64,000 bases of DNA from a virus (Duplodnaviria; Heunggongvirae; Uroviricota; Caudoviricetes). The notes beneath the pieces were generated by a model. That model was not told where the DNA came from, made no database searches, and was given only the letters and a program-made list of their open reading frames with translations. The stretch spans positions 53,051 through 117,050 of IMG/VR virus record IMGVR_UViG_3300012347_000482; one strand, 5' to 3'. Made by a program: the position numbers and the translations under genes. How positions within the stretch are numbered: position 1 is the stretch's first letter; each line of letters opens with the position of its first letter. Shown here one piece after another: positions 10,902 to 13,631 of the stretch.

Positions 10902-12407
10902 ATGAGAGCAAGAGAATTTATATTTGAAGACTACAAAGATGCCAAAAAAGAGTTTAGTCGTGTAGCCGACCCACAAGTAGTACAGGACACTATTGATCAA
11001 TACAGAGAATTAGTTAAAAAAAATCAATTTAGAAACCCAATTGAAAAAAATATCGACCACTGGCGAGAGCGCGGGTGGGAAGCATTTAGTCAAATGGTCA
11101 AATTGAAAAGCAGTGACATCACTGATACTCAGCGTAAACGTGGTAAAGTAGTAGGTAATGCAATATCATTACAAGATGACGACGAATGGACCGTAGTTAT
11201 CCCTCTAGATAAAGAATCAAGTGTACACTATGGAAAAGGAACTGAGTGGTGTACTACTAAACCAAATTTGGCGTATTATGAACAATATGTATACGAACGT
11301 AATATTACTTTAATCTATGCAATTGATAAAACTAAATCGGGACGTAGTGTTGCTATTTCGATTAAGCCCGCGGGTAAGCAAATTCAAATGTTTAATCAAA
11401 ACGATAAACCAATTGACTCTGCACAATACAAAGAAATATCAGGGCTTGATTCTGCAAAATTTATCAATATGGCTGCATTACCTGAAACTCAGCAACAGCT
11501 CACTGCATCAAGAGAAAAATATAAAGTAGCTGATAAAACTGTTAAGACTTTACTAGCAGAAAAACCACTTAATCCAGAAGCAATTGAACGAGAACTTAAA
11601 ATTACTAAGAAGAGTGAAGATTGTTATAGTTACATATTTAAATATGGTCAAGAGCAAAATAAACCAGTTAATGTCCATCCAATCATAATAGCGGCTGCTG
11701 CATATCATGTTGAGAATCATGGTGCAAAAAGATTAGCACCTCTTATTGGACAGTATATCGACTTTCCGAATTTACCAAGTGGATTAATCAAAACAATTTT
11801 AAGATCAAGCCCGGGTATATTTGTATCTAACTTTAAATTGTTAAGTGCTGAACAACAGGCTATGTTTGCACTTGCTCCAGCCTCAGCTTATCATTATGCT
11901 GCCTTTATACTTAACGAAAAACCATTCCCTGCAGGTGAACCAGCTATTGCAAAAGATGCATTCTATTCATATTATTATTCTATCTCTATACTTAACAATC
12001 CATTTCCAGCAGGCGAACCAGCTATTGCAACTAATGCAGACTTTTCATACATGTATGCCTCTAACTTCTTTAATGGAGTAGGATGGCCGTTAGGCGAAGC
12101 TATAATAGCAAAAAATGGAGCCAACTCGTATTATTATGCAACTCGAGTGATTAAAAAGCCATTCCCTCTAGGCGAATCTGAAATATTTAAAGATAAGTTT
12201 TATTGGAAAGACTATACTGTGGGCTTACTTAAAGATCATCGATCGCCATCATGGGAACAACTAATCAAGAACGATCCCGAAAAATCGTTTGTTTATGCTC
12301 AAACACGTAACAAACCATTTCCTGCAGGAGAAGCTGCTATTGCAACTAACCCAAAATATGCTGCTGAGTACGACCAACTGTTTGGTACTAATCTTGCACA
12401 GCGATAA
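10902..12407 (+). CDS. repeat-protein family member B1 (type-B N-domain + repeats + FGTNLAQR tail)
   Basis: MRAREFIFEDYKDAKKEFSRVADPQVVQDTIDQYRELVKKNQF...WRERGWEAF...YGKGTEWCTTKP...ITLIYAI; FPAGEPAIA..a.YSY.YA repeats; ends EYDQLFGTNLAQR. Confidence 0.85.
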   Translation: MRAREFIFEDYKDAKKEFSRVADPQVVQDTIDQYRELVKKNQFRNPIEKNIDHWRERGWEAFSQMVKLKSSDITDTQRKRGKVVGNAISLQDDDEWTVVIPLDKESSVHYGKGTEWCTTKPNLAYYEQYVYERNITLIYAIDKTKSGRSVAISIKPAGKQIQMFNQNDKPIDSAQYKEISGLDSAKFINMAALPETQQQLTASREKYKVADKTVKTLLAEKPLNPEAIERELKITKKSEDCYSYIFKYGQEQNKPVNVHPIIIAAAAYHVENHGAKRLAPLIGQYIDFPNLPSGLIKTILRSSPGIFVSNFKLLSAEQQAMFALAPASAYHYAAFILNEKPFPAGEPAIAKDAFYSYYYSISILNNPFPAGEPAIATNADFSYMYASNFFNGVGWPLGEAIIAKNGANSYYYATRVIKKPFPLGESEIFKDKFYWKDYTVGLLKDHRSPSWEQLIKNDPEKSFVYAQTRNKPFPAGEAAIATNPKYAAEYDQLFGTNLAQR

Positions 12408-12434
12408 CATAAATATCATATCTAAGGGATATTT
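12408..12434 (+). promoter_or_regulatory. late-promoter-like leader
   Basis: TAACATAAATATCATATCTAAGGGATATTTATG; the stop codon of the upstream gene is embedded in the box. Confidence 0.5.
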
Positions 12435-13631
12435 ATGAGAGCAAGAGAATTTATTATCGAGTATGACCGCGGCATGACACTTAAGTCGTGGCAACAAAAA
12501 TTAACAGCACGTATGTCAAGTGATAACTCCGCACCTGACACCATTGATGAAATTATGGAAATAATTGAGTCATCTGACCCCACTCGCAATAAAGTATATG
12601 TGCAATGGATTGTCAAGCGATATGTTGCTGGAGATTTTACTGTTGATTTACTTGATCAAGTAAATCAACAGTTATCTGATTACGATAAGATAAAAAAATC
12701 ACTAAACGATCCAATACACAGAGATATTAACAGATTAACGTATGCACAATTGCCGGATATTATTAACTTAGGGCAAACAAGTAAGTCACAACCAAAATTT
12801 GAAATTATTCCAGATACTGAAGTATTGTATAACGGCCCAGAAGGGCAATTAGCTGTGCCTAAAACAGAAGAAGCAAGTCGTGCATTGGGCGCAGGAACTG
12901 CTTGGTGTACAGCATGGACTGATCAACCGACAATGTTTAACCATTATAACTCATCTGGTAAGTTATATACATGGAGAGCCAAAAATGGAGATAAGGCTCA
13001 ATTTTATTGGGGTAATAATATTCAATTTATGAATTCAGCTAATAGGCCTTTAGAAGGAGAAAAACTTCATTTTTATAGATCTGTAAATCCAGCAACTAAA
13101 AAATTATTTGCCAAATACGAATCCACATTTATTAACAATGGAGATATGGATCGTATTCGAGAACTCGATAATATATTAAGTGAGGCAGGAGTCGATTGGA
13201 CAGCAGCACACACCTATATTAAAGACATCCAATATGCAGAAAGTGCATATAACTCTATTTCAGCCGGTGACTTTGATGATTTTCCAGAAATCGCAAAAGC
13301 AATGAAATCAGAGCAAGAAGCTAGTATTGCAAAAAGTGCAAAGTATTCGTATAAGTATGCTAGTGAAATATTAAAAACCCCATTTCCAGCTGGGGAGCCT
13401 GCTATTGCAACGAGTCCACCGTATGCATACCGATACGCAACTTTTGTGCTCAACCAGACTAGATTTCCAGCCGGCGAAGCTGCTATCGCAACGAGTCCAC
13501 AGTATGCATACCGATATGCCGTTAACATTTATAACGAACGATTCCTCATAGGTGAAGCCGCTATAGCAACTGATCCAAGATACGCAGCTTGGTATGATGC
13601 TGCATTTGGTACTAATCTTGCACAGCGATAA
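12435..13631 (+). CDS. repeat-protein family member A2
   Basis: MRAREFIIEYDRGMTLKSWQQKLTARMS...GAGTAWCTAWT...; 3-4 FPAGE(P/A)AIATSP.YAYRYA repeats; ends WYDAAFGTNLAQR. Confidence 0.85.
   Translation: MRAREFIIEYDRGMTLKSWQQKLTARMSSDNSAPDTIDEIMEIIESSDPTRNKVYVQWIVKRYVAGDFTVDLLDQVNQQLSDYDKIKKSLNDPIHRDINRLTYAQLPDIINLGQTSKSQPKFEIIPDTEVLYNGPEGQLAVPKTEEASRALGAGTAWCTAWTDQPTMFNHYNSSGKLYTWRAKNGDKAQFYWGNNIQFMNSANRPLEGEKLHFYRSVNPATKKLFAKYESTFINNGDMDRIRELDNILSEAGVDWTAAHTYIKDIQYAESAYNSISAGDFDDFPEIAKAMKSEQEASIAKSAKYSYKYASEILKTPFPAGEPAIATSPPYAYRYATFVLNQTRFPAGEAAIATSPQYAYRYAVNIYNERFLIGEAAIATDPRYAAWYDAAFGTNLAQR

Follow-up and report, generated by a model that had tools for sequence, protein, structure and literature searches.

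A late-promoter-type junction cassette with a putative targeting leader recurs between the genes of a hypervariable array in an uncultured PA5oct-like jumbo phage

In silico analysis of a 64,000-nucleotide stretch of an uncultured phage genome (IMG/VR record IMGVR_UViG_3300012347_000482, positions 53,051 to 117,050; hereafter the window) identified an array of ten paralogous genes on the + strand (8854-25271), the junctions of which carry copies of one short cassette. The cassette is a late-promoter-type variant of known phage shuffling cassettes, namely the repeats of the T4 internal protein (IP) loci and the PeSLs. It is probable, in our judgement, that it acts as a compact expression-and-targeting module, doubling as recombination homology in a hypervariable gene array. 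The array proteins comprise 385-737 amino acids (aa) and all end in 26-aa helical repeats (FPAGEAAIAT..YSY.YA). According to their N-terminal domains, the genes are divided into class A (starts 8854, 12435, 15309, 19513 and 21106), class B (10902, 17215, 22273 and 24057) and class C (14097), and the gene bodies of the three classes are not alignable to each other at the DNA level. The source of the window is a jumbo-type phage, PA5oct-like and distantly related to Pseudomonas phage PA5oct. Three related contigs were recovered for comparison: L002 (an ENA contig, about 95% identical to the window), L004 and L005. Further sequences represent a related lineage (L009 and L010), a diverged relative (L012) and Salicola phage SCTP-2 (L013, MF360958).

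The cassette consists of the following elements, in the 5' to 3' direction; (i) optional paralogue tail codons, FGTNLAQ(R/Q)*; (ii) the 8-bp NATAAATA box; (iii) a spacer with the Shine-Dalgarno (SD) sequence, which places the box 18-19 nt from the start; (iv) nine leader codons, M-R-A-R-E-F-I-x-E. The repeat is real and far beyond chance. Its 20-nt start sequence ATGAGAGCAAGAGAATTTAT has 8 matches, at 8854, 10902, 12435, 15309, 17215, 19513, 21106 and, with GTG, at 22273, against 0.02 expected from shuffled sequences, and GATAACATAAATAT-like sequences occur eight times on the + strand of the array (9 in the whole window versus 2.4 expected). The box, (C/T)ATAAATA with ATAAATA invariant, is found at 10 of 11 junctions and ends 18-19 nt before ATG at eight of the ten array starts (8854, 10902, 12435, 14097, 15309, 17215, 21106 and 24057). 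Box, ribosome site and leader are common to the three array classes and to an unrelated GH19 lysin-like gene at 25341.

All copies lie on the + strand. Cassette 1 (8822-8880) and cassette 2 (10871-10928) are without a paralogue tail. The former has the box CATAAATA at 8827-8834, the SD sequence AAGAGGA, ATG 8854 and the leader MRAREFIIE, and its box pairs with the spacer plus ATG over a perfect 11 bp; the latter (box 10876-10883) opens the class B gene at ATG 10902 with MRAREFIFE and is the breakpoint of an L002-specific insertion. Cassette 3 (12380-12461) possesses every element: the tail FGTNLAQR (...TTTGGTACTAATCTTGCACAGCGA), TAA at 12405-12407, the box CATAAATA at 12408-12415, the SD sequence TAAGGGA at 12423-12429, ATG 12435 and MRAREFIIE. 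It forms the left breakpoint of a window-specific 398-aa gene, the right one being cassette 4 (14065-14123; box TATAAATA at 14070-14077), which starts the class C gene at ATG 14097 with the variant leader MRIYEVITE. Cassette 5 (15254-15335; tail, box 15282-15289, ATG 15309) and cassette 6 (17160-17241; degenerate tail remnant, box 17188-17195, ATG 17215), both with MRAREFIVE, are the left and right copies of a duplicated junction around a window-specific 566-aa gene. Cassette 7 (19429-19539) is interrupted, as a terminator-like hairpin plus T-tract (19475-19505) lies between its box (TATAAATA, 19451-19458, preceded by a tail remnant) and ATG 19513 with MRAREFIVE. Cassette 8 (21051-21132) has the tail FGTNLAQQ, a box at 21079-21086, ATG 21106 and MRAREFIIE, and junction 9 (22236-22299) the same tail, TAA, AGGATAGTC, GTG 22273 and the leader (M)RAREFIFE. 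Cassette 10 (24026-24083; box 24031-24038, ATG 24057) encodes the variant leader MRLIELLRE. Cassette 11 (25272-25367; box 25277-25284, ATG 25341, MKIREIITE) precedes the non-family GH19 lysin-like gene, and a second terminator-like hairpin plus T-tract (25304-25330) separates its box from the start.

An earlier note on this DNA had described the cassette as tail codons, stop codon, box, ribosome-binding site and the first eight codons of the next gene. The letters at 12380-12461, read again, agree with that description, as do the two hairpins with T-tracts between box and start. The conserved coding part, however, is nine codons long. The tail codons, placed by the note at most junctions, are present at 12435, 15309 and 21106, in degenerate form at 17215 and at the box-less 22273, but are missing at 8854, 10902, 14097 and 24057; they occur only where a paralogue ends directly upstream, and elsewhere box, ribosome site and leader are what is shared. 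The starts listed in the note are genuine instances, although those at 14097 and 24057 carry related rather than identical first codons, and the list omitted 19513 (full leader) and 22273 (leader and tail, no box).

Indirect support exists for the box as a T4-late-type promoter. T4 late promoters have the sequence TATAAATA and are used with gp55, gp33 and gp45 (PMC2988020), and Rak2-like jumbo phages are reported to encode a gp55-like sigma factor and to have ATAAATA before structural genes (PMC5259590). The late motif of these phages and the array box are alike in having 8 bp, an invariant ATAAATA, a variable first position and no -35 element, and in standing close to the start codon before virion genes (for the array, in relatives). 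The promoter search in the window covered the region from -60 to -6 of 69 predicted starts outside the array, with shuffles as control. ATAAATA is present upstream of 7 starts versus 2.0±1.4 expected (5 of 2000 shuffles reach 7), and its reverse complement in 2 of the 69 regions. The shorter TAAATA precedes 19 of 69 starts versus 5.4±2.3 expected (0 of 1000 shuffles), its copies mostly ending 18-30 nt before ATG, whereas no enrichment is seen for the reverse complement (5 versus 4.2). Among the genes with the exact box upstream are one for a virion-structural-like protein (54951) and one for a tailspike-like protein (57293); upstream of the latter, GATAAATAC..ATAATAAATT is the sole island conserved between the window and L012, the remainder having diverged. 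In L002, a minus-strand open reading frame (ORF) outside the family is preceded by GATAAATA, then AAGAGGA, then ATG. In L009/L010, (G/C/A)ATAAATA (NATAAATA) stands before the portal gene, two more head genes and a family gene. At L009 1182, 3967 and 10001 and at L010 1359 and 7393, the starts of the portal gene, of the head gene after it and of the family gene, (G/C)ATAAATA lies only 5-6 nt before ATG and no SD sequence is present; with the box as a late promoter of the T4 type, transcription here would yield leaderless or almost leaderless mRNAs.

A bias towards virion genes is found in PA5oct, for which 123 annotated starts from three regions were analysed and genes with products found by mass spectrometry were counted as virion genes. 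ATAAATA precedes 18 of 60 virion genes and 6 of 63 others (Fisher p=0.006), and its reverse complement shows no virion-gene bias. PA5oct relies on host RNA polymerase, and sigma-70-like promoters are the only ones reported in its description (PMC7318152), yet its virion genes are enriched in upstream (G)ATAAATA. Its product EST35_0137 is a late sigma factor of the gp55 type by profile match (PHROG_12791, E 8e-82; PHROG_234, the T4 gp55 family, E 1e-17). This gene (L008 784-1626, record 70783-71625) is annotated as a hypothetical protein in MK797984. On the proposed mechanism, host RNA polymerase together with a phage gp55-like sigma factor would initiate a few bases 3' of the box, and most array genes would thereby have their own short-leader mRNA.

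Several observations weigh against this promoter reading. The first box position is mostly C, whereas A(-13) is the common variant in T4; in favour of the promoter reading, however, this position (-13, the first of TATAAATA) is the most variable one in T4 late promoters (PMC2988020). Junction 9 has no box, either in the window or in L002, and the gene at 22273 is probably co-transcribed with the gene upstream of it. TAAATA also precedes genes that are likely not late, those for ribonucleotide reductase (RNR, 59665) and DUF179 (26474), and because of these two the word "late" is used here by inference only. At 19513 and 25341 RNA initiated at the box would need to read through a terminator, so that these junctions fit poorly with a simple picture of one promoter per gene. 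The box abuts the stop codon, and its conservation could therefore partly be hitch-hiking with recombination homology. Finally, no homologue of T4 gp55 is detectable in the 64-kb window, and none of the gp55-type sigma factors among the best 120 of more than 5,600 metagenomic matches to the PA5oct query belongs to the window's lineage. The suggestion of the earlier note that each gene may have its own late promoter thus stands in part: the enrichment, the L012 island and the bias and sigma factor of PA5oct speak for it, and the box-less gene, the two terminators and the RNR and DUF179 genes against it. Likewise, of the checks which the note proposed, the box does recur before genes of virion or virion-like proteins (54951 and 57293 in the window, PA5oct virion genes, L009 head genes) but not before these alone, and a gp55-like sigma factor was not found in the window but is encoded by the relative PA5oct. 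A consistent sigma-70 -35 element was not found upstream of the box in the array cassettes, in any of which the best sigma-70 match reaches 9/12 (17162-17190). One candidate general signal, TTGGTA in the tail, 17 nt and TAACAT, scored 8/12, is confined to junctions with tails and was rejected.

The box may alternatively act at the RNA level in a polycistronic mRNA and not as a promoter; as a processing site or as one arm (5') of a hairpin, it would govern mRNA cleavage or the start of translation at every gene boundary. At 8854, 12435 and 24057, CATAAATATC is the exact reverse complement of GATATTTATG, that is, of the spacer plus the start codon, and among 20 junctions folded, taken from the window and its relatives, the AUG is paired in 13 (free energy -4.7 to -16.4 kcal/mol, z down to -6.8). 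The most stable is cassette 10, with the 13-bp pairing CGCATAAATATC/GATATTTATGCG (-16.4 kcal/mol). Such hairpins are used by the T4 genes e, soc, 49 and I-TevI, in which the 5' arm of an inhibitory hairpin overlaps a late promoter and only the late transcripts are translated (PMC3014915). On the other side, the AUG-pairing hairpin is absent at 7 of the 20 junctions, among them 14097, 15309, 17215 and 21106, all of which have kept the box; the 20 junctions showed no compensatory substitutions, no Rfam family matches the cassette, and the box stands before many other genes without a pairing partner. A purely RNA-level role is considered unlikely, and the missing pairing and covariation also weigh against a hairpin function added to the promoter. 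Since hairpin and late promoter occur together in T4, the promoter lying in the 5' arm, the RNA reading complements the promoter reading and does not exclude it. It may be speculated that read-through transcripts could hide the start codon by pairing of the box with the spacer and AUG, and that transcripts initiated at the box would not.

The conserved first codons encode MRAREFI(I/V/F)E. In the earlier note they figured as passive DNA homology; they instead encode a conserved N-terminal leader resembling the capsid-targeting sequence (CTS) of T4, and we infer that they are best read as a CTS-like targeting and cleavage leader. The T4 CTS is carried by IPI, IPII, IPIII and Alt and is cleaved by the prohead protease gp21; in IPIII it comprises the first 10 residues, of which residues 8 and 10 (I, E) direct the cleavage (PMC9026906). 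IPII and IPIII, as read from NC_000866, start with MKTYQEFIAE, and their E-F-I-x-E is in matching register with the array leader, I-x-E falling at the T4 processing positions. In both systems the sequence occupies the extreme N-terminus of otherwise unrelated proteins. The array leader has nine residues to the ten of T4. In some homologues, unlike in T4, it runs into the element of the domain that is conserved first (..FEY(D/K)R).

Of 81 window proteins, 14 have the pattern M[RK]xx[ED]hhx[ED] at the N-terminus, versus 2 matches in 18,272 internal positions. The 14 are the ten array proteins and those starting at 2820, 7724, 25341 and 45613, all on the + strand, with MRIYEIINE, MKIFEVIQE, MKIREIITE and MRIEEIVTE, respectively; apart from the GH19 protein (25341) these non-array proteins are small. 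The occurrence of the pattern on non-array proteins suggests a genome-wide tag. A further case is MRVHEFITE, which begins with the second ATG of ORF 31050-31328 on the minus strand. Homologues at about 30-38% identity keep the leader (MRAKEFIVEY, MKSVEFLFEY, MRYIEFITE..), and in the structure model of a family protein (pLDDT 92) leader residues 1-6 are disordered. In L009/L010 the family genes are located just downstream of a T4-type head module (Portal_T4, Peptidase_S77, a scaffold-sized ORF and Gp23), with only an endonuclease-like ORF between the capsid gene and the family genes. PA5oct carries the same Portal_T4/Peptidase_S77/Gp23-type module, and its family homologue EST35_0205 is annotated in GenBank as "structural protein, ESI-MS/MS".

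The likely nature of the array changes if its leader resembles a capsid-targeting sequence. The leader would bring each protein into the prohead core and a gp21-type (Peptidase_S77) protease would remove it after I-x-E, so that the array products would be virion-packaged and probably ejected proteins. Two results run counter to this: the PA5oct family homologue is located in the tail-gene region, and no head module or S77 protease of the window's lineage was found among the best 120 of at least 8,000 matches to the L009 capsid query. The fullest form of the proposal describes, for PA5oct-like jumbo phages, a large and fast-shuffling locus of capsid-targeted cargo proteins, in which a late-type cassette and a universal 9-residue packaging and cleavage tag serve swappable genes; we regard it as possible, but lean towards doubting it. 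As a side observation, the window encodes a ClpP-like protease (36824-37444, + strand) 63% identical to EST35_0272 of PA5oct, which also possesses ClpX and ClpS. Cleavage of class A leaders after E9 would expose an N-terminal Tyr, a ClpS-type N-degron residue; a connection with ClpS is pure speculation.

Cassette and leader could also be a passive remnant of recent tandem duplication, homogenised by gene conversion, with no promoter function and a leader that is merely the start of the fold. The N-terminal domains of class A share 77-86% DNA identity, which indicates a recent duplication of these genes, and patterns like those of conversion exist, such as CGATAA tails around the window-specific genes versus CAATAA in L002. 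This explanation has to face three facts, however: the cassette is common to genes of classes A, B and C and to the GH19 gene, the bodies of which are unalignable as DNA, the leader persists at about 30% identity and on 4-5 unrelated window proteins, and the box recurs before non-family genes in the window, in L002 (the minus-strand ORF), in L012 and in PA5oct. We consider it quite unlikely, and retain the reading of the cassette as an expression-and-targeting module.

Comparison of the window with its relatives shows, at the sequence level, that the cassettes serve as recombination homology, because each of three gene-sized indels has a cassette endpoint. L002 lacks the 398-aa gene together with a 138-aa ORF (window positions 12412-14079) and also the 566-aa gene (about 15337-17160), and has an extra class B gene which starts with a canonical cassette and is inserted immediately 5' of the box of the 501-aa gene; thus all three indels that distinguish window and L002 have at least one end within or at a cassette. 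Cassettes 5 and 6 of the window both align to L002 5519-5600. In three-way alignments the L002 junctions are chimeras, with one crossover in the box region and the other between the SD sequence and leader codon 9. The array expansions of the other two contigs are also bordered by cassettes: in L004 three further class A genes precede the orthologue of the 8854 gene, and a pair of class A genes at the position matching these extras closes the L005 contig. The expectation of the earlier note that cassette identity provides homology for shuffling or duplication is borne out by these indels. Because each gene opens, and many also close, with the same 60-80 bp, homologous recombination between cassettes removes, duplicates or adds whole genes, in frame and with expression signals intact, and close relatives differ in array content for this reason.

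A dedicated recombination site with a site-specific enzyme, for example the target of a homing endonuclease or a site like integron attC, is very improbable. It would agree with the imperfect inverted repeat at each gene boundary, with the gene-sized indels at cassettes and with the HNH/NUMOD3 homing endonuclease gene (8069-8764), which heads the array, has been conserved in both L004 and L005 and would be a candidate for the enzyme. The window, however, encodes no integrase or recombinase, and the two mapped crossovers differ in position, one in the box region and one towards the leader codons, which favours homologous exchange over a site-specific enzyme. In these two respects the cassette also departs from integron attC sites.

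Among known systems, the repeated sequences of about 70 bp which flank the IP genes of T-even phages are the closest parallel (Repoila et al. 1994, EMBO J 13:4181, as reported in PMC2839356 and PMC3012670). As far as those reports describe them, the IP repeats and the array cassette are both short repeats at the boundaries of variable genes, with a promoter (putative in the array), an overlapping AT-rich inverted repeat, a ribosome site, about ten leader codons and variable gene content among close relatives. In T4, the upstream regions and the first 10 codons (the CTS) of ipII and ipIII are near-identical (NC_000866). According to the same reports the T4 IP elements contain early promoters, whereas the array box (NATAAATA) is of the late type. 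The IPs are small and basic; the array encodes large repeat proteins (385-737 aa) of a PA5oct-like jumbo phage.

The T-even IP repeats have been classed as PeSL-like analogues (Arbiol et al., PMC2839356). PeSL cassettes mediate modular shuffling between T4-type phages about 95% identical to each other (Arbiol et al. 2010, PMC2839356; Comeau et al. 2014, PMC4122927). Both PeSLs and the array cassette offer homology for insertion, deletion and replacement between non-essential genes, the PeSL crossovers falling between -10, SD and ATG. Unlike a PeSL, the array cassette lacks a good sigma-70 -35/-10 pair, carries a terminator stem-loop at no more than 2 of its 11 junctions and reaches into the coding sequence on both sides (tail and leader codons). 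Given the weak sigma-70 match (9/12) and the two terminators, it is PeSL-like in its working but not a PeSL. A T4 gene e-type hairpin, sequestering SD and AUG and with its 5' arm in a late promoter, has a possible counterpart at 13 of 20 junctions, is missing at 7 and shows no covariation. The predominance of C at the first box position separates the cassette from T4 late promoters.

A stem-loop plus TTGACT module of the PeSL type is also present in the window (+ strand, 8771-8798 and 7993-8022) and in L004 and L005, where it precedes the extra class A genes. It consists of a GC-rich stem-loop (AGGCTCTTCGGAGCCT), a T-tract and TTGACT, and resembles a terminator followed by an early promoter; the copy at 8017-8045 gives the homing endonuclease gene a sigma-70 promoter (11/12). 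Array genes 1 and 2 are separated by a 657-nt spacer, the identity of which to L002 (98.9%) exceeds that of the flanking genes. The spacer contains a full-length match to the Rfam family RF01718, Polynucleobacter-1 RNA (10364-10513, + strand; 89.1 bits, gathering threshold 37, E 4e-18), and a sigma-70-like TTGACT-17-TATACT lies just 5' of this match (10298-10326). The RF01718 family occurs in Burkholderiales and in freshwater and estuary metagenomes, which hints at the host or habitat of the phage.

For the array proteins, Pfam gave at most weak repeat matches (HTH_35 and similar) and no further significant domain, and no fold neighbour of an array protein was found in the PDB. Within the GT.WCT motif, W157 and C158 are invariant in 37 homologues. 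Five tandem repeats of 156 nt (52 aa), 73-81% identical to each other, lie within the 566-aa gene (15997-16920, + strand). Six repeats of 78 nt are present in the first gene (8854), which differs in size from its L004 orthologue (463 versus 437 aa), possibly through a changed number of repeats. In the 737-aa class B protein (17215-19428, + strand) most of the helical repeats are replaced by four GYF_2 domains (Pfam E 2e-43) in the C-terminal part, with an RRRRR tail after them. Phage SCTP-2 encodes a six-member family of class B homologues (about 33.6-42.5 kb) with the leader MKVKHITQYLFESYKDA. Its tandem members have compact junctions of 2-13 nt without a box, and hence the per-gene cassette belongs to the window's lineage and not to the protein family. 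The isolated SCTP-2 member (gene 40) has GATAAATA 26 nt upstream, and a gene for an RpoH-like sigma factor is found nearby.

The window has a G+C content of 37.5% and contains two tRNA genes and genes for a T4 Rnl1-type RNA ligase, HNH/NUMOD3 endonucleases, a DNA ligase, ClpP and RNR alpha, together with tail-fibre-like genes. Compared to PA5oct, the amino acid identity is 63% for ClpP, 44% for RNR and 45% for the exonuclease, and the order exonuclease, structural gene, small ORF and RNR alpha is the same in both. Megablast gave no DNA-level match of the array to cultured phages. A scan of viral contigs with the 398-aa protein yielded no match, and a metagenome scan for the cassette pattern returned two short contigs and nothing more. 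Two related assemblies terminate inside the array; in practical terms, the cassette repeats break metagenomic assemblies.

If the proposed reading is true, the NATAAATA box provides a working promoter model for PA5oct-like phages, and a principle of which T-even phages (IP loci and PeSLs) offer the only known cases extends to an abundant group of uncultured jumbo phages. The leader would then be a simple sequence rule which predicts packaged proteins and defines the packaged proteome, at least 4-5 other tagged proteins being encoded in 64 kb, the GH19 lysin included, and it could be a tag for loading foreign cargo into jumbo-phage heads. The locus as a whole would correspond to the T4 internal-protein loci, enlarged and with late-type promoters, and the array would be a host-range or anti-defence arsenal of injected proteins, turned over by cassette-mediated recombination.

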